This document shows positions 2,552-29,987 of a DNA stretch of 64,000 nucleotides, piece after piece (within the stretch, counting starts at the first letter, position 1; the number at the start of each line of letters is the position of its first letter). Below the pieces are notes generated by a model, which saw only the letters and a list, made by a program, of their open reading frames with translations, ran no database searches and was not told the DNA's origin. Source of the DNA: a virus (taxonomy: Duplodnaviria > Heunggongvirae > Uroviricota > Caudoviricetes); the IMG/VR virus record IMGVR_UViG_3300045988_150439. One strand, given 5' to 3'. The translations under genes were made by a program, and so were the position numbers.

Positions 2552-2687
2552 ACCACAAACAGCCAGCGTGTTGTTCTGCGATGGGGCTGAGCCTATCTAT
2601 ATCAGCAATAATGATGTAATGACTGAAGAAACCGAACGCCAAATCCTTTTTCACAATACGATGGGAGAGAGGGTTTGTGGTTGGTGA
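2472..2687 (+). CDS. o-spanin-like (Rz1-like) lipoprotein
   Basis: Signal peptide with lipobox ISGC; overlaps the 3' end of the upstream gene in another frame (Rz/Rz1 arrangement). Confidence 0.45.
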   Translation: MRRAVKYVRKMLLPFIVSCMISGCVIKPQTASVLFCDGAEPIYISNNDVMTEETERQILFHNTMGERVCGW

Positions 2688-2719
2688 TGTCGAAGTTCCC
2701 CTCAAATGAGGGGAACACA

Positions 2720-3241
2720 TTATTCTTCGAACAATTTTTCGATAGATTTTGTAGGATAGAACAAAGAACGCTCGTTGTTACCAACCAGCTGGATAAAGCC
2801 TAAACTTTTATAAAACGCCTTGGCTTTGTCATTTAACGCCTCAACGAAAAGTCCATGAATGCCTACAGCAAGAGATGCATTGTACACAACGCGCATTGCA
2901 TGTGTTACAAGCATTGAGCCAAATCCTTGACCTTGAAGGGACTTGTCCAAAGCCAGCCTACCCAAAGTAACACTTGGAACATTCCGATAAGGAACCTTCT
3001 TTTGTTTGCTTCTTGAAGGTAAGGACTCCTTTTCAAAACAACTACCTGACAAAGTGTAATATCCTAACACTTTTGGCCTTTCTTCTTGAGTGCAAAGCAC
3101 ATAAGCACGAAGAATTTTTCCCTCATGCTGCCTTTTTAAGTGGTTGGCTAAAAAGGCGTTTAGTGACTCTTCGCCGCAATCAAAACCGTTTAGATCATAA
3201 TCTTTCTCTCCAGAGAAAATCTCTATCGTTGTATTGCTCAC
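2720..3241 (-). CDS. GNAT-family acetyltransferase toxin (TacT/AtaT-like)
   Basis: 173 aa, GNAT motif QGQGFGSMLV; GTG start 8 nt after the stop of a DUF1778-type gene on the same strand. Confidence 0.7.
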   Translation of the reverse strand: MSNTTIEIFSGEKDYDLNGFDCGEESLNAFLANHLKRQHEGKILRAYVLCTQEERPKVLGYYTLSGSCFEKESLPSRSKQKKVPYRNVPSVTLGRLALDKSLQGQGFGSMLVTHAMRVVYNASLAVGIHGLFVEALNDKAKAFYKSLGFIQLVGNNERSLFYPTKSIEKLFEE

Positions 3242-3248
3242 GAGTAAA

Positions 3249-3518
3249 CTACTCCATGCTTTTCAGACGATCAGCAGCTCGTTTCAGCTTGTCGTTCGGT
3301 GCCGGAGGATTGCTTATAGCGTCCATAACCAGATTCCAGGATTCTTCATTCAGAACTAGTCTACGGTGTTGCTCTATAACTTTCACGGCACGTTCAGATG
3401 CACTGCTAACCATAAACTGAGTAATGCTCTGGTTAGACATTGCGGCAGCTTCCTCGATGATGCTTTTATCGTCATCGGTTAATCTCAAATCGATGCGCTG
3501 CTTTTTTAGTGCTGACAT
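3249..3518 (-). CDS. DUF1778-type ribbon-helix-helix antitoxin (TacA/AtaR-like)
   Basis: ORF 3249..3557; probable ATG 3518 follows GGAGG. About 89 aa with KKQRIDLRL strand then helices and PPAPN tail; precedes the GNAT gene. Confidence 0.65.
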   Translation of the reverse strand: MSALKKQRIDLRLTDDDKSIIEEAAAMSNQSITQFMVSSASERAVKVIEQHRRLVLNEESWNLVMDAISNPPAPNDKLKRAADRLKSME

Positions 3519-3836
3519 GTATTCCTCCTGATGGCCGTGATATAGGAAGGCCATCAATCTCCTCTGTTCAAACTGAGTTTTCGACTCAAAAATTACTTTA
3601 AAAGGCTATAGCCCATTACGTGTGCATTATCAAATTGTGTACGGCATATCACCGTACTTGTAATATAGAGGTCATTGTTACTTTTTTCAACAGGCAAATA
3701 CAAGCAATGATTGCCAATTGTTAACCACAACCTACCATTTTACCTTTACACCGCAGCCGTAGGCATTTAGGCTATATCACATATAAGAAAACAAGTTGTT
3801 TCAGACGATAATTATATACGCAAAGGGAACTCTCCA

Positions 3837-4505
3837 ATGACCAAGATCTTTGTGGTTGGCGGCACAAAGGGCGGGCCTGGCAAATCCACCGTTGCCCAGC
3901 AAATTGCCGTTTGCCTGAAAGTCAAAAAGAAGAAGAAGGTTTATATCACTGATATAGATATTCAGCGCACGACAACAAGCTGGTGTGAAGACCGTCGACA
4001 GAACGAAGATCTTGAGCTGATTCCTTTTGCATACGTTCAGGATGACATCATTAAGCACCTAAAATCGCTTCAGGGTAGAGCTGAGTTTGTAGTGGTAGAT
4101 GCTGGTGGCTTCGACTCCGAAATTCAGCGACAAGCGATGCTGATGGCTGACGTTATCATTATCCCGCTGCGTCCTAAGCGTCGTGATTTGAAATCTTTAC
4201 GTGACATCGATCCTATTATCGACAATGTTCGCAATGTAAACGATAAAGTGAAGGTCCGCGCGGTCATGAACCAGTGCCCGGCTTTGCCATCACAAGTGTC
4301 TCGCATTCTGGCGGCTAAAGAGATTGTTGAGACGTTTGGAATCGAGTCTGCGCCAGTCAATCTATATAACCGCAACGTCTATGATGATGCGGAAGAGTCT
4401 GGTCGTTCTATCTTTGAAATGACCGGTAGCGAGCGCGACAAAAAGGCGGAAGCCGAGTTTGAAGAATTTGTAGATTATCTGTTGAGTCTGGAGGAAGAAG
4501 AATAA
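3837..4505 (+). CDS. parA: ParA/Soj-type partition ATPase
   Basis: Deviant Walker A GGTKGGPGKST at N-terminus; 222 aa; stop overlaps start of downstream gene (TAATG). Confidence 0.8.
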   Translation: MTKIFVVGGTKGGPGKSTVAQQIAVCLKVKKKKKVYITDIDIQRTTTSWCEDRRQNEDLELIPFAYVQDDIIKHLKSLQGRAEFVVVDAGGFDSEIQRQAMLMADVIIIPLRPKRRDLKSLRDIDPIIDNVRNVNDKVKVRAVMNQCPALPSQVSRILAAKEIVETFGIESAPVNLYNRNVYDDAEESGRSIFEMTGSERDKKAEAEFEEFVDYLLSLEEEE

Positions 4506-4864
4506 TGTCCATGAAAATGGGTGACCTAGCAAAGCGCAAAGAGCCTGATGCACCGGCTAAGAACACAACTCCTTTGCGCCAACCAGTCAGACCACAGGGA
4601 CGCCCGACTCGTGGCAAAGAGAAAATTAAAAGCCGCACAATGTCACTGGAAGACGAATACTTCGAACTGCTGGAGATGATGAAGTTCATCCCTCGCTTCG
4701 AGAAGTTCACTCGTTCTGACGTGATTCGAGCAGCCATTTTCCATCTGGCAGAGAAGTCACCGCAGGAAATCGAGGACATCGTGAAGCTTAACGAGGCGAT
4801 CACAGCTGCCGACGTTACGATGCGTACCGATGAAATTAAACGAGAGTTGATGAAGAAAGGTTGA
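4505..4864 (+). CDS. small partition DNA-binding protein (ParG-like ribbon-helix-helix)
   Basis: 119 aa; basic N-terminus then RHH-like segment RTMSLEDEYFELLEMM...RSDVIRAAI; translationally coupled to parA. Confidence 0.5.
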   Translation: MSMKMGDLAKRKEPDAPAKNTTPLRQPVRPQGRPTRGKEKIKSRTMSLEDEYFELLEMMKFIPRFEKFTRSDVIRAAIFHLAEKSPQEIEDIVKLNEAITAADVTMRTDEIKRELMKKG

Positions 4865-4867
4865 TTA

Positions 4868-4890
4868 TATTGGGCGTTTGTTACGCCCAA
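4868..4890. repeat. perfect inverted repeat ttgggcgt / acgcccaa (hairpin or protein-binding site)
   Basis: Read directly; lies between the par operon and the AT-rich KAP gene. Confidence 0.4.
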
Positions 4891-4915
4891 TATATGAATT
4901 AAAGGATTGATACTA

Positions 4916-6610
4916 ATGGAATCGATAGAATCATTTCTAAAAAATTTTCTAGTTTCAGATCATCGGGTTGCCGTCATAAAAGGAGATTGGGGCGTTGGTA
5001 AAACTCATTATTGGAATAGTTTTTATACTAAGCATTCTGAAGGATTAGATTTTAATGCATATTCGTATGTTTCTTTGTTTGGGGTTAACTCTATTGGTGA
5101 TATTAAAAAAACTCTTTATCATTGTGCCACACCAATTAATGAAAAGAAATATAAAGAACTAATTTTATCTGAAACGGATCGAACTATGATTCGTTATAGA
5201 AATGGGTTTTGGGGATGGTTGAAATACAACTCCTTGTCAAAATTTTTAATACATTTCGGAAAGAACGATTTTTTTGGGTTCAAAACAGATAACCTGCTGT
5301 CATCTCTTGAGTATAAATTTGTTAATAATTATTTGGTTTGTATTGATGATGTTGAAAGAAAAGGTAATTCGCTAGAAGTTAAAGAAATTATGGGGGTAAT
5401 TGATGAATTAGCAAGAAGAAAAGGTTGCAAAGTTGTTCTAATTTTAAATGAAGATAATTTACATGATGAAACTGCAAAAAAACAGTTTTTAGAGTACAGA
5501 GAAAAAGTAATTGATGTCGAAATAAAATACGATCCTACGCCTGAGAAGAACTTACGTAAAGTTTTTTATGAAACTGATTCTGATTTTCTTTTGTTAAAAG
5601 TCTTAGCAAATGACTTAGGCATTAAAAATATCCGTATATTAAATAAAATAAAAACATCTCTGGTTAATCTTAGGAATGAGCTAAGCTTGGCAGAGGATAA
5701 GGTTAGAGAAAGTTTTATCAATAGATTGGTTCTGTTTTCAGTGGTTTACTATTCTGGTGTTCCAGGTGTTGATTATGCCTTGTTTAAAGAATCAATTAAA
5801 AACATACATGTATTTGATTACATGTTAGATGATAAAAAGGATGATTCTGTATATTCATTTATTAATAGTCTTGATATTATTTATGAACGAGCGGAAATTG
5901 CTTTCGATGATGACATAGATTTTTATCTCAAGAATGGTTATCTTTCTACTGAAAGCAATATTCGAGGTATAATAGAAGAAAAAAATAAACAATATAAAGA
6001 ACACAAGGCTTTATGTGAGGTTAACAATGTTTGGGATATTTTTAGTGACTCATTCAAGGACAATGAATCTGAGTTTATTTCTAAGATAAAATGTGTAATT
6101 AACGACAATCTTTCACACATACCTGTTGCTCACTTCATAGGCTTGATTGATATCTTAAATAGATTGTTGATTGATTGTGATAGTTATATAGAGGCATATG
6201 CAGATGCCTTTGTTAGCCAAGATGATGCTTATACTGCTTTTCGGAATTTGTATGTAGAGATATTTGGTAACGAAAAGTTAGGTCTGCTAATTCAAAAAAA
6301 ATTGATGGATAAGAAGCCTGAAGAGACTAATTTAGAGAATGTTTTATACAAAATAATTGAAGGCAAATTTAATCATAGTGACATAGCATATCTTAACAGT
6401 TTCTCTGAAGATGATTATTTAAAGTGGATATTATCCCGCAATCAGGATGCTTTGGATTTAGTGAGAAAGGGGTTGCTCAGATTCAAAAGTATGCAAGAAC
6501 TAACAGAAGAACAGCAAAAAATCACGAATAAAGCAATAGGTGCATTAACGAAACTGGCCTCTAGATCAAGTCTTAACAAACTACGTGTGAGCAGATTGCT
6601 TAATAATTAA
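4916..6610 (+). CDS. KAP-family P-loop NTPase
   Basis: ORF 4907..6610; ATG 4916 follows AAAGGA. Walker A GDWGVGKTHYW near N-terminus, DDVER Walker B-like; coding region clearly AT-rich relative to neighbours. Confidence 0.6.
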   Translation: MESIESFLKNFLVSDHRVAVIKGDWGVGKTHYWNSFYTKHSEGLDFNAYSYVSLFGVNSIGDIKKTLYHCATPINEKKYKELILSETDRTMIRYRNGFWGWLKYNSLSKFLIHFGKNDFFGFKTDNLLSSLEYKFVNNYLVCIDDVERKGNSLEVKEIMGVIDELARRKGCKVVLILNEDNLHDETAKKQFLEYREKVIDVEIKYDPTPEKNLRKVFYETDSDFLLLKVLANDLGIKNIRILNKIKTSLVNLRNELSLAEDKVRESFINRLVLFSVVYYSGVPGVDYALFKESIKNIHVFDYMLDDKKDDSVYSFINSLDIIYERAEIAFDDDIDFYLKNGYLSTESNIRGIIEEKNKQYKEHKALCEVNNVWDIFSDSFKDNESEFISKIKCVINDNLSHIPVAHFIGLIDILNRLLIDCDSYIEAYADAFVSQDDAYTAFRNLYVEIFGNEKLGLLIQKKLMDKKPEETNLENVLYKIIEGKFNHSDIAYLNSFSEDDYLKWILSRNQDALDLVRKGLLRFKSMQELTEEQQKITNKAIGALTKLASRSSLNKLRVSRLLNN

Positions 6611-6620
6611 GTATTCATGA

Positions 6621-14474: not shown

Positions 14475-14549
14475 GATGGTGTAGCTCAGCGGTAGAGCAG
14501 TTGGCTGTTAACCAACTGGTCGGTGGTTCGAATCCACCCACCATCGCCA
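14475..14549 (+). tRNA. tRNA-Asn (anticodon GTT)
   Basis: Cloverleaf by eye: acceptor gatggtg/caccatc, D-arm gctc..gagc, anticodon stem gttgg/ccaac loop ctGTTaa, T-arm ggtgg-ttcgaat-ccacc, encoded CCA. Confidence 0.85.
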
Positions 14550-14551
14550 AT

Positions 14552-14627
14552 GCCGGTTTAGCTCAGTTGGTAGAGCACCTGCCTTGTAAGCAGGATGTCA
14601 GCGGTTCGATCCCGTTAACCGGCACCA
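14552..14627 (+). tRNA. tRNA-Thr (anticodon TGT)
   Basis: Acceptor gccggtt/aaccggc, anticodon stem cctgc/gcagg loop ctTGTaa, T-loop ttcgatc, encoded CCA. Confidence 0.85.
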
Positions 14628-14720
14628 ACACAACAGGTAAGAGCATTGGGCGAATCGGCGATACTGACCCACAAGCCCGTAAATCGATAGAGTCAGACCA
14701 GTGCTCTTACCGTTGTGAGG
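14626..14720 (+). ncRNA. long hairpin unit 1 (possible small stable RNA)
   Basis: 15-bp stem acaacaggtaagagca / tgctcttaccgttgt (one mismatch) enclosing ~55 nt; shares stem-base cacaac/gttgtg with units 0 and 2. Confidence 0.3.
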
Positions 14721-14764
14721 AAGTGCAGCTCTTTGAAGCAACCAGAAGATAAGCATCTGGCTTC

Positions 14765-14850
14765 ACAACACAACGATAAGATCATTACGGTTAATCGTCG
14801 TTCATGTGCACAATGACTGGTCGAAAGGTAGTGATCTTACCGTTGTGATG
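14765..14850 (+). ncRNA. long hairpin unit 2 (possible small stable RNA)
   Basis: 16-bp stem cacaacgataagatca / tgatcttaccgttgtg (one mismatch); 3' flank cttaccgttgtga[g/t]gaa shared with unit 1. Confidence 0.3.
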
Positions 14851-14947
14851 AATGCACAGGCTGATGTGCCGCAACTACAGTAGTGCGCGCTTTGCGGGGC
14901 TTGCTACAACCCTGTGTCGGAGTTCAGCACCGACCATCACAATAGCT

Positions 14948-15034
14948 GGAGAGTAGGGAGCATGGTGCTCAAGCGGTCTTGAAAACCGTCCCATTGCGCA
15001 AGCGATGATGGTTCGATTCCATTACTCTCCGCCA
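14948..15034 (+). tRNA. tRNA-Ser (anticodon TGA), type II
   Basis: Acceptor ggagagt/actctcc, anticodon stem gcggt/accgt loop ctTGAaa, long variable arm, T-loop ttcgatt, encoded CCA; about 87 nt. Confidence 0.75.
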
Positions 15035-28322: not shown

Positions 28323-28593
28323 AGAATTATGGCGCTTGTTGAGGAAGTCACTCCTCTTACGCACTTTGTTTTGCCATGCCGGCAGTTAGCTTCTGCCTTT
28401 GACTATTCATGCGGCAACCCCGCATTTCGCCACAATGGGCAATTCACTTTTATGGAATAAACTGGCCGTTGTGTCGATTTAATTAGCATGGCCTTACCAT
28501 GCTAATTTATTCAACTTGTAAAATCCTACAAATCTATCCACTCAGGCTTACACCGTCTTCGTTATTGTAGAAATGAGGATCATCAGCGTTGAA

Positions 28594-28809
28594 TCAGCTT
28601 AGAGCAACGACATTTGCTGCTGCTGGGCCTTTAGCCCCATTCTCGATAGAGAATTCGACCTGCTGGCCTTCTTCCAAAGTGCGGAAATTATTACTCTGAA
28701 TTGCCGAAAAATGTACAAAAACATCTTTACTGCCATCAGCAGGAGAAATAAAGCCAAAGCCTTTATCAGAGTTAAACCATTTTACTAAACCAGTCATTTT
28801 ATTAGACAT
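28594..28809 (-). CDS. cold-shock protein (CspA family)
   Basis: ORF 28594..28905; probable ATG 28809 follows AAGGTAG. About 71 aa with RNP1 KGFGFI and RNP2-like VFVHF. Confidence 0.8.
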
Positions 28810-29138
28810 AGATACTACCTTCTTAATTTTGTGAGCCACATAGTGCGGCGAGAATTTGATCTGTATAGATTGGGACTTACTTAGGCACTTAAGGAGGAGA
28901 CTCACGAAGAAGGGAAATCAGAAGATAACACTGAACTGAGACTGCTTTACTAAAACTGCTTACATAAGGTCTGTCTTGCAAACCAACGATGCTATTAACG
29001 CATACCCCTTCTTTTCATGCAACCTTTATTTTTCAAAGATAACTAATTTTTGTCACCATTGGTTTAGTAAACGTTAACGAACCAGACGATGCCAGACACC
29101 TTTACAGAGAACAGATGCCCGCCAATTGGCGGGCATCA

Positions 29139-29702
29139 TTATGCGCATTTCGCAATATCTTTGCGGCGTTTAATCAGTTTCTCCGCAATTTGCTCTATTT
29201 CGTTGAAATCTTTCGAGACGCTGTTTCGAAGCGCCAGATTCCATTTACTCAAAGTTCGGGCATTTTGGACAATTTGATCGCCCTCTTTAAGTCGTCCGTT
29301 ATTCATGAGCCATTCAGCCACATCAGCCCAATCCCAGAGAGGAGACTGGCCTTTTATGCGTTGTACAGGGCAAGGGAAGTCGCCGCTTCCGCGCTTACCG
29401 TCTTTGAGCAACGCCACTGCCTGGCGAGACAGGTCTGTCAGTTCCGCGATATCGCTTAAGCCCACAAGAGCCGAGTCGACGGATTCAACAATTGCACCGA
29501 TACCGGCTGATTCAATATTGTCGACCGCAGATGCGATAGCTGCATCAAGTGATTGTGCTTCGCGGTCAAATTCTACATAGACGGAGTTTCCATATGCGCA
29601 AATTAGCGCATCGTCACAGCCGTTTTGGTACAGCGCGTCTTCCAGTCCTTCCGTCTCATACGATACGCCTGAGAGCGTCAGAGTGAAGTTATAAAGCGCC
29701 AT
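29139..29702 (-). CDS. HicB-like antitoxin candidate
   Basis: ORF 29139..29738; probable ATG 29702 follows AAAGGA. N-terminal MALYNFTLTLSG..YETEGLEDALYQNGCDDALICAYGNS resembles HicB; HTH-like segment later. Confidence 0.35.
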   Translation of the reverse strand: MALYNFTLTLSGVSYETEGLEDALYQNGCDDALICAYGNSVYVEFDREAQSLDAAIASAVDNIESAGIGAIVESVDSALVGLSDIAELTDLSRQAVALLKDGKRGSGDFPCPVQRIKGQSPLWDWADVAEWLMNNGRLKEGDQIVQNARTLSKWNLALRNSVSKDFNEIEQIAEKLIKRRKDIAKCA

Positions 29703-29762
29703 AGTTTTCCTTTGAAGATAGTTGGACAGTTTCTGCAAAAGGCGGCTAATGCCGCCTTGAAA

Positions 29763-29987
29763 TCATTTACAACGATCAACCATTCGTTTGATCTGTTTGG
29801 CATGGTTTTCGGGATTACCCGGAGTCGACCATACGCTCATTTGGTGAGTTTTGTGTTCACCTTCTGGATTACCGCATCGCAGTCTGCAAAAACAATGTGC
29901 AGCACCACCAGCTGCTACCCAGATCCAGCCTTTACTTAATGCATAGTCAATGGCTGCTTGAATATGCTTATTCGGATGTTGCTTCAT
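29763..29987 (-). CDS. HicA-like toxin candidate
   Basis: 74 aa; GW..H...PG...H pattern loosely like HicA; lies upstream of the HicB-like gene. Confidence 0.3.
   Translation of the reverse strand: MKQHPNKHIQAAIDYALSKGWIWVAAGGAAHCFCRLRCGNPEGEHKTHQMSVWSTPGNPENHAKQIKRMVDRCK

Follow-up and report, generated by a model that had tools for sequence, protein, structure and literature searches.

An AtaRT/KacAT-type toxin-antitoxin operon carried as an accessory cassette beside the partition genes of an SSU5-like phage-plasmid

What does a toxin-antitoxin gene pair do in a tailed phage, where it has lysis genes on one side and partition genes on the other? The question is raised by a 64,000-nucleotide stretch of caudoviral DNA (hereafter the window). 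An earlier note on this DNA had placed a DUF1778-type antitoxin gene and a GNAT acetyltransferase toxin gene at positions 2720-3518 and read them as a probable plasmid addiction system. We therefore followed up the pair, its regulatory sites, its carrier and its distribution among related elements.

Structure of the gene pair

The toxin-antitoxin gene pair is real and intact. Both open reading frames (ORFs) occupy exactly positions 2720-3518 and are read from the minus strand, which had not been given before. The antitoxin gene (3518..3249, minus strand) encodes 89 aa between an ATG start and a TAG stop, with an AGGAGG Shine-Dalgarno sequence at 3529..3524, 5 nt upstream of the ATG. It is followed by the toxin gene (3241..2720, minus strand), which encodes a GNAT acetyltransferase of AtaT/KacT type with 173 aa and a GTG start. 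The gap of 8 nt described earlier is correct as a stop-to-start offset but not as a spacer, as the sequence from the antitoxin stop codon to the toxin GTG (3242..3248, minus strand) holds 7 intervening nucleotides, TTTACTC. The minus strand across this junction reads ...ATGGAGTAGTTTACTCGTG..., and the last bases of the antitoxin ORF, with the stop codon, overlap a GGAG that could act as the ribosome-binding site of the toxin gene. The arrangement is bicistronic, with the antitoxin first, the 7-nt gap and a single promoter-like site upstream; on the coding strand between the two genes no promoter-like site was found.

In the annotation of Escherichia phage Cyrano the antitoxin ORF has 101/102 aa. 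This longer form was ruled out, because a 1-nt indel in an allele of 90% identity puts the upstream ATG out of frame, and the start of the 89-aa form, which the AGGAGG sequence supports as well, is therefore taken as the real one. The alignments with the antitoxins AtaR and KacA begin at residue 1 of the 89-aa form.

Family assignment and conserved residues

Profile searches against the DUF1778 and GNAT families, as the earlier note had proposed, gave matches above the Pfam cut-offs for both proteins. The protein of about 89 aa described as a ribbon-helix-helix protein of DUF1778 type matched PF08681 TacA1 (formerly DUF1778) over residues 8-86, with an E value of 5.7e-26 and 90.7 bits against a cut-off of 21 bits. 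It consists of an N-terminal ribbon-helix-helix DNA-binding part and a C-terminal toxin-wrapping part (TacA/DUF1778; AtaR/KacA type). The 173-aa toxin exceeded the cut-offs of the Pfam GNAT families PF13508/PF00583 (E ~1e-7), and the QGQGFG motif that had been noticed lies at residues 103-108. It has both the GNAT acetyl-CoA motif Q/R-x-x-G-x-G/A, in this form, and the catalytic tyrosine, Y144. No NCBIfam equivalog was matched above its cut-off by either protein, the matches being weak and of RimI-like, MobA and RelB kind; likewise, neither protein matched PADLOC-DB 2.0 (5027 models) at E values up to 0.01.

Comparison with the PDB placed the pair more precisely. The toxin matched AtaT (6GTS, E 1.4e-79, 269 bits; also 6AJM, ~1e-79) and KacT (5ZGN, E 3.9e-75, 255 bits), and the remaining GNAT toxins in the PDB gave at most 81 bits, with TacT-type chains at E values of 1e-11 to 1e-21. 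For the antitoxin the matches were KacA (E 6.6e-42) and AtaR (E 1e-40). In ungapped alignments over the full length, the toxin is 70% identical to AtaT (120/172 residues), and for the antitoxin the figures are 80% with KacA and 76% with AtaR. AtaT and KacT share 66-67% identity (PMC6698736); these two are the closest characterised relatives of the toxin, at about the identity that they share mutually. Every sequence-level test of membership, both in the GNAT/DUF1778 family and in the AtaT/KacT branch, placed the proteins inside the group.

These results support the identification of the pair as a type II GNAT toxin with a DUF1778/TacA ribbon-helix-helix antitoxin, of the TacAT/AtaRT/KacAT kind. 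This architecture had already been recognised, and the PDB matches to AtaT and KacA narrow it down. By its sequence the pair falls, with good support, in the AtaT/KacT branch (clade A of PMC9177977; clade 1 of PMC9431474). We consider it highly probable that the pair is a functional one of AtaRT/KacAT type.

The conservation extends to residues of known importance. Mutagenesis or the AtaT-tRNA structure has singled out 21 residues of AtaT that we checked (PMC7595197); of these, 16 are identical in the toxin, including G108, Y144, Y85, R95, F30 and L27. The catalytic Y144 aligns with Y144 of AtaT and Y145 of KacT, and G108 is kept in the acetyl-CoA site. The basic helix through which the tRNA acceptor stem is read is mostly preserved as well, and the tRNA-contact residues H34, R37, S76, S78, K79, K81, K82, Y85, R95 and K165 are retained. 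The five changed residues are A26S, R40E (a charge reversal), N41G, R71K and K77R. The antitoxin retains R8, D10 and R12, with which KacA reads the bases of its operator (PMC6698736), together with M65 and I68 of KacA. At positions 70 and 77 it has N and K, where KacA has Q and R; both follow AtaR.

Promoter, operator and terminator

The antitoxin-toxin operon is served by a sigma-70-like promoter, TTGAAA-17 nt-TATATT (3662..3690, minus strand), which agrees with the consensus at 10 of 12 positions. A predicted operator palindrome, GTACGG-N7-CCGTAC (GTACGGTGATATGCCGTAC; 3639..3657), begins 4 nt past the -10 hexamer and lies over the expected transcription start. The 64-kb window contains a single copy of the palindrome, where chance alone would give 0.04. 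The operator co-crystallised with KacAT (TGTACGGTTATTAACCGTACA / AAATGTACGGTTATTAACCGTACATGA) spans the kacAT transcription start (PMC6698736), and its half-sites and 7-nt spacer length are the same as in the predicted operator. The chromosomal ataRT promoter of E. coli O157:H7 holds GTACGGTGACATACCGTAC, again with these half-sites and this spacing. Since half-sites and spacer length are common to the pair, KacAT and ataRT, we therefore regard them as one operator design in three systems. The distance to the start codon differs, being 26 nt for the ataRT operator and ~120 nt for that of the window.

The leader between operator and antitoxin ATG (3519..3638, minus strand; ~120 nt) contains conserved short palindromes, and one of these, TGATGGCC-N12-GGCCATCA, lies immediately ahead of the Shine-Dalgarno sequence. 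A structured RNA in the leader was considered and rejected; the whole-leader fold is no stabler than that of shuffled sequences (z = -0.48), and for this reason we make no such claim. An Rfam search of the leader found nothing. At the other end of the operon, a GC-rich hairpin of 9 pairs (2695..2716), likely a terminator, lies inside the cassette, in the space where the Rz1 spanin gene and the toxin gene converge.

Comparison with AtaRT and KacAT

The chromosomal AtaRT of E. coli O157:H7 (PDB 6GTS, 6AJM) has the same gene order as the pair, and the two are ~66% identical at the DNA level. It sits between panM and livJ on the chromosome, whereas the pair lies on a phage-plasmid, and AtaT starts with ATG after a gap of 6 nt, whereas the toxin of the window starts with GTG after 7 nt. 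In PGAP annotation, toxins of the window type are called 'GNAT family N-acetyltransferase' and not AtaT, and their partners 'DUF1778' or 'TacA family antitoxin'. All near-identical records of the pair lie on plasmids. On account of the different replicon, the level of DNA identity and the lack of a PGAP ataT name, we do not regard the toxin as an AtaT orthologue. KacAT, which is chromosomal in Klebsiella pneumoniae and has been crystallised with operator DNA (PDB 5ZGN), differs from the pair in host genus and replicon.

The carrier is an SSU5-like phage-plasmid

Around the pair, the window shares 99.7% identity with many E. coli plasmids of 105-120 kb and with Escherichia phage Cyrano (= pLF82), and the replicon is an SSU5-like phage-plasmid of pLF82/Cyrano type, a common one in E. 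coli. The plasmids among the matching records measure 100-120 kb. The plasmid setting proposed earlier is thus right in that a low-copy extrachromosomal replicon carries the pair, but this replicon is a phage-plasmid of the SSU5/Cyrano type and not a plain plasmid. Cyrano is present at ~5.5 plasmid copies per chromosome and is induced by ciprofloxacin (PMC9928086).

The parA gene, whose adjacency had also been pointed out, is divergent from the pair and 318 bp away (3837-4505, plus strand, 222 aa). Its product matched NCBIfam ParA_partition with an E value of 1.9e-33, under the model cut-off, and Pfam MipZ/AAA_31/CbiA over their cut-offs. The gene that follows (4505-4864, plus strand, 119 aa) is more likely the ParA partner, and the two genes form the partition locus of the phage-plasmid backbone (3837..4864). 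In Cyrano this second gene is labelled 'RelE/ParE toxin', a label that we rejected, as it found no Pfam or PDB support.

In a blastn comparison with SSU5, homology ends at window position 2679, near the end of Rz1, and restarts at 3730. The whole cassette (2680..3729, ~1 kb) is therefore delimited by conserved lysis genes on one side and the conserved parA upstream region on the other. It contains the pair with its own promoter, operator and terminator-like hairpin, and its GC content is 41.4%, against ~48% in the flanks. Its upstream neighbours are genes for a tail fibre, holin, endolysin and the Rz/Rz1 spanins, and its downstream neighbours are parA, the gene for the ParA partner, and helicase and primase genes. 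The same slot holds two unrelated plus-strand ORFs in SSU5 and phage PhiR41_1, and one minus-strand ORF of ~184 aa in pHCM2 (Salmonella Typhi) and a Klebsiella element; none of these alternative cargos had a Pfam or PADLOC match. The opposite side of parAB carries a PADLOC defence candidate in every element checked, namely PDC-S49 in the window and in the Klebsiella element, and PDC-S31 in Cyrano and pHCM2.

The toxin and antitoxin of the window are identical to Cyrano CYRAN_26/27, which are annotated as "KacT Acetyltransferase-type toxin" and "putative antitoxin". The pair is already known, since identical proteins are found in GenBank/RefSeq and in a 2023 paper (PMC9928086) under the right family name. 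It has previously been described by annotation only, as a KacT-like toxin and antitoxin in Cyrano/pLF82. Both genes are transcribed in LF82 lysogens, at 35-fold and 60-fold over the local prophage background (PMC9928086). As a discovery the pair has little value, being an ordinary module of the AtaRT/KacAT family, which is structurally and biochemically well understood.

Distribution of the cassette

The PLSDB collection contains the cassette in 145 plasmids, assigned to Escherichia (140), Shigella (3), Enterobacter (1) and an uncultured organism (1), and at least 80% of the cassette is covered in 143 of them. Identity to the window cassette is at least 99% in 61 plasmids, 95-99% in 35 and 90-95% in 49. 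The parAB backbone was found much more widely, in 731 PLSDB plasmids that include 241 from Escherichia, 8 from Shigella, 307 from Klebsiella, 90 from Enterobacter and 47 from Salmonella. Accordingly, ~57% of the Escherichia/Shigella elements of SSU5 type carry the pair (143/249), while at the search sensitivity used no PLSDB element from Klebsiella or Salmonella, and a single one from Enterobacter, carried the cassette. The cassette-bearing elements come from diverse sources, such as chicken, dog, pig, soil and water.

Among deposited phage genomes, the full-length toxin type was found only in three Cyrano-like records; two short phage records of ~2 kb each gave partial toxin matches, with 62% and 77% identity. 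A survey of 5,426 complete E. coli genomes revealed 152 records with a copy of the pair at 90% identity or more, and 1,626 further chromosomes (~30%) with ataRT, at ~66% DNA identity.

SSU5, pHCM2, PhiR41_1 and L004, the only Klebsiella element examined, do not carry the pair. Elements of SSU5 type persist widely in those hosts, and it follows that the pair is not required for maintenance. Its presence in roughly half of the Escherichia elements of this type provides a convenient natural test of phage-plasmid stabilisation or of competition with incompatible relatives.

Alleles and selection

Five copies of the cassette were compared, those of the window, phage Cyrano, pMB5646_2, E. coli S56 plasmid B and pHS30-1. 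No allele has a disrupted ORF in either gene, and the toxin invariably starts with GTG. Both promoter hexamers are likewise identical throughout, and both operator half-sites are kept; the operator spacer varies in the comparison with the 90%-identity allele, the two forms being TGATATG and TAAATTG. For diverged alleles, dS reached 0.49-0.60 in the toxin gene, with a dN/dS of ~0.05, and 0.18-0.25 in the antitoxin gene, with a dN/dS of 0.04-0.05. A dN/dS of ~0.05 at a dS of ~0.5 indicates strong purifying selection on both genes. Among the matches listed (39 of 143), 36 of the 37 annotated full-length records carry the two-gene annotation.

Proposed mechanism

By analogy with AtaT and KacT, it is near-certain that the toxin would act by acetylating charged tRNAs and thereby block protein synthesis. 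Its predicted substrates, Gly and hydrophobic aminoacyl-tRNAs with initiator Met-tRNA among them, would become unusable in translation. In vivo, AtaT and KacT target Gly- and hydrophobic aminoacyl-tRNAs (PMC9177977; PMC7595197), and in vitro the range extends to initiator Met-tRNA, Trp, Tyr and Phe (PMC7595197). The C-terminal half of the antitoxin would wrap the toxin so that the acetyl-CoA site and dimerisation are blocked, and a toxin-antitoxin2-antitoxin2-toxin hexamer would bind GTACGG-N7-CCGTAC over the transcription start and repress the operon. In the Klebsiella system, KacA blocks the acetyl-CoA site and KacT dimerisation, and a DNA-binding heterohexamer represses the operon with conditional cooperativity (PMC6698736), a behaviour demonstrated for KacAT only.

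The GTG start would hold toxin translation low, and the antitoxin would be protease-labile (Lon, as for GmvA). When the phage-plasmid is lost, or displaced by an incompatible relative that lacks the pair, translation would stop and the cells would die or stall. Such death or stalling on loss would raise the vertical retention of the phage-plasmid.

The start codon has a practical consequence. KacT4 with its native GUG start is non-toxic under pBAD and becomes toxic once the start is AUG (PMC9431474). A negative toxicity result for the GTG-started toxin would therefore not overturn the identification unless expression is controlled.

Role of the pair

We hypothesize that the pair is a functional type II operon, which the phage-plasmid carries in its maintenance region as an accessory cassette, and that retention is the main role of the pair, with a probability of roughly 0.6. 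Retention through post-segregational killing or exclusion of incompatible competitors is the route that we favour. The plasmid-addiction role suggested earlier is plausible by analogy; it is based on the place of the cassette within the maintenance region of an episome of low copy number, on expression in lysogens and on the roles of related systems.

Phage-plasmid P1 carries phd-doc, a type II pair that enforces retention of the prophage-plasmid. Doc phosphorylates EF-Tu, and the proteins and chemistry of phd-doc are unrelated to those of the window pair. Killing following curing has been reported for phd-doc (bioRxiv 10.1101/2023.08.29.555305). An experimental stabilising or post-segregational-killing role is also known for two systems of GNAT/DUF1778 type, the plasmid-borne GmvAT of Shigella pINV and tacAT of E. 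coli 53638. GmvAT stabilises pINV in a Lon-dependent manner (PMC6519299), and with tacAT synthesised from the E. coli 53638 sequence, survival upon forced curing of the carrier plasmid was 1.4e-4, lower than with any other TA system tested (bioRxiv 10.1101/2023.08.29.555305). Both belong to the Gly-tRNA-specific branch (clade D, PMC9177977), which is distant from the AtaT/KacT branch of the window toxin. Work on AtaRT and KacAT, which are chromosomal, has dealt with growth arrest and tolerance and not with the stability of plasmids, and the plasmid-borne GNAT toxins of Klebsiella belong to other clades (PMC9431474). As the studied members of the AtaT/KacT branch are chromosomal, the phage-plasmid location of the pair is a mild twist. 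In the literature searched, we found no experiment on the pair itself.

A defence or competition role was also considered, in which the pair serves as an abortive-infection or anti-competitor device in an accessory hotspot with other defence candidates. Many type II pairs act as abortive-infection systems. An incoming phage would shut down host expression, the labile antitoxin would decay, and the toxin would halt translation. The cassette occupies a variable slot, and PADLOC candidates (PDC-S49, PDC-S31) stand on the opposite side of parAB, which leaves room for this role. However, none of the 5027 PADLOC models recognised either protein, the alternative cargos of the slot likewise lack PADLOC matches, and the literature searched contained no GNAT/DUF1778 pair that protects against phage. 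We consider this role unlikely, although it is the best of the alternatives to retention.

A benefit to the host appears less likely still. Here, stochastic or stress-induced toxin activity would produce dormant cells that tolerate antibiotics or macrophages. Such cells have been reported for TacT in Salmonella. Overproduction of KacT leads to antibiotic tolerance (PMC9431474), and the lysogen of LF82, a strain that survives in macrophages, expresses the toxin gene (PMC9928086). However, the tolerance effects stem from overexpression, other macrophage-surviving adherent-invasive strains do not carry Cyrano (PMC12931692), and the cassette tracks the mobile element over diverse sources and no single niche. 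It is just as improbable that the pair is a neutral selfish passenger or an attenuated pair, hard to lose, weakened by GTG and R40E and of no measurable benefit to the phage-plasmid: the GTG in all alleles compared, the non-toxic KacT4 with its native GUG (PMC9431474) and the presence/absence polymorphism among otherwise similar elements fit this idea, but the low dN/dS of the toxin gene over a dS of ~0.5 would be unexpected in a decaying toxin, and promoter and operator are conserved.

Possible cross-talk with chromosomal ataRT

Retention is the preferred reading, and it could be modified by the chromosomal relative. Cross-talk may occur, because the pair and ataRT have the operator half-sites and the DNA-reading residues in common and the toxin-binding halves of antitoxin and AtaR are 71% identical. 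Cross-neutralisation by AtaR, if it occurs, could blunt addiction, given that ~30% of E. coli genomes have ataRT with the same half-sites. For a depletion of the cassette from genomes with chromosomal ataRT, the summary counts give an upper bound: of 299 plasmid-borne copies, no more than 71 are in a genome that holds a further copy, compared with ataRT in 30% of genomes. Phylogeny and other plasmid alleles confound this comparison, which is not decisive. It is doubtful, to about the degree given above for a defence role, that the pair and chromosomal ataRT cross-regulate or cross-neutralise each other, or else that the cassette forms one side of a defence/competition hotspot around parAB.

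The operator common to the pair and chromosomal ataRT nevertheless makes cross-talk a concrete and testable hypothesis. If it were true, AtaR would be an 'anti-addiction' factor deciding which E. coli lineages shed or resist SSU5-type phage-plasmids, and the arrival of the phage-plasmid would rewire the chromosomal toxin.

Other features of the phage-plasmid

The genes labelled 'hicAB' in Cyrano, a putative second pair that would make addiction modules redundant in the element, correspond to window positions 29139-29987 on the minus strand; a Pfam search of both ORFs at E values up to 0.01 gave no match. The phage-plasmid has tRNAs of its own, for Asn, Thr and Ser. A link between these tRNAs and the toxin was rejected, as Asn, Thr and Ser are outside the Gly or hydrophobic targets of the branch.

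Relation of the pair to chromosomal ataRT and its replacement in pTIC

Chromosomal ataRT is present in ~30% of complete E. coli genomes. In the E. coli O157:H7 chromosome (L009), the operator upstream of the antitoxin gene ataR has half-sites and spacing identical to those of the operator predicted for the phage-plasmid pair at 3639-3657. Cross-repression or cross-neutralisation between chromosomal ataRT and the phage-plasmid pair is thus a possibility.

A variant of the pair was found in the ‘uncultured bacterium plasmid pTIC’ (MF554642.1; L008), which, apart from its insert, is a near-identical phage-plasmid. At positions 3034-3722 of this plasmid, corresponding to 2723-3411 of the window, exactly 689 bp with aac(6')-Ib-cr were found in place of the pair sequence. 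The sequence replaced consists of the antitoxin gene from codon 37 to its 3' end and the toxin ORF up to, but not including, its stop codon; the product of aac(6')-Ib-cr is a GNAT as well. The replacement junction falls exactly on the toxin stop codon, and no attC site was visible at the replacement. It looks either engineered or like an unusual product of recombination.

Three tRNA genes (Asn-GTT, Thr-TGT and Ser-TGA) are clustered at 14475-15034 on the plus strand of the window; none of these three classes is among the known targets of AtaT/KacT-type toxins.

Genes adjoining the partition locus

The 119-aa gene directly 3' of parA (4505-4864, plus strand) is labelled ‘RelE/ParE putative toxin’ in Escherichia phage Cyrano. 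Searches of Pfam and PDB returned 0 matches for its product, and a weak NCBIfam match was ribbon-helix-helix-like. We consider it more likely to be the partner of ParA, i.e., a centromere-binding protein, than a toxin.

A second variable slot, AT-rich with 30.6% GC, follows directly 3' of parAB (4866-6616, plus strand). It holds an ORF (4907-6610, plus strand) for a 567-aa KAP-family P-loop NTPase, which matched the PADLOC candidate PDC-S49 (E 7e-22). This slot content is not found in Cyrano and was recovered from 23 plasmids only. The slot after parAB is occupied by a DUF2971/PDC-S31 protein in Cyrano and in pHCM2 of Salmonella Typhi, and a Klebsiella element has a gene resembling PDC-S49 there. 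The slot adjoining the partition genes looks like a hotspot for defence candidates.

Further differences from Cyrano and a cspA-like locus

The first ~1,170 nt of the window, which take in an ORF at 101-760, gave no blastn match to the compared Cyrano region, and this suggests that the host-range module differs from that of Cyrano.

By position, two minus-strand ORFs are counterparts of the Cyrano ‘HicB antitoxin’ (29139-29738) and ‘HicA toxin’ (29763-29987). This second toxin-antitoxin annotation is unconfirmed, as Pfam gave 0 matches for both at E values up to 0.01.

Between the ‘hicB’ counterpart and the DNA polymerase III alpha gene lies a cspA-like locus (28569-28987, minus strand), which by position appears to correspond to a stretch without annotation in Cyrano. 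It includes a full-length Rfam match (184 bits) to the cspA thermoregulator RNA, preceding a gene for a 70-aa cold-shock-domain protein (28594-28806, minus strand; PF00313, E 1e-33). The phage-plasmid thus has a cspA-like gene of its own, together with the RNA thermosensor of that gene.
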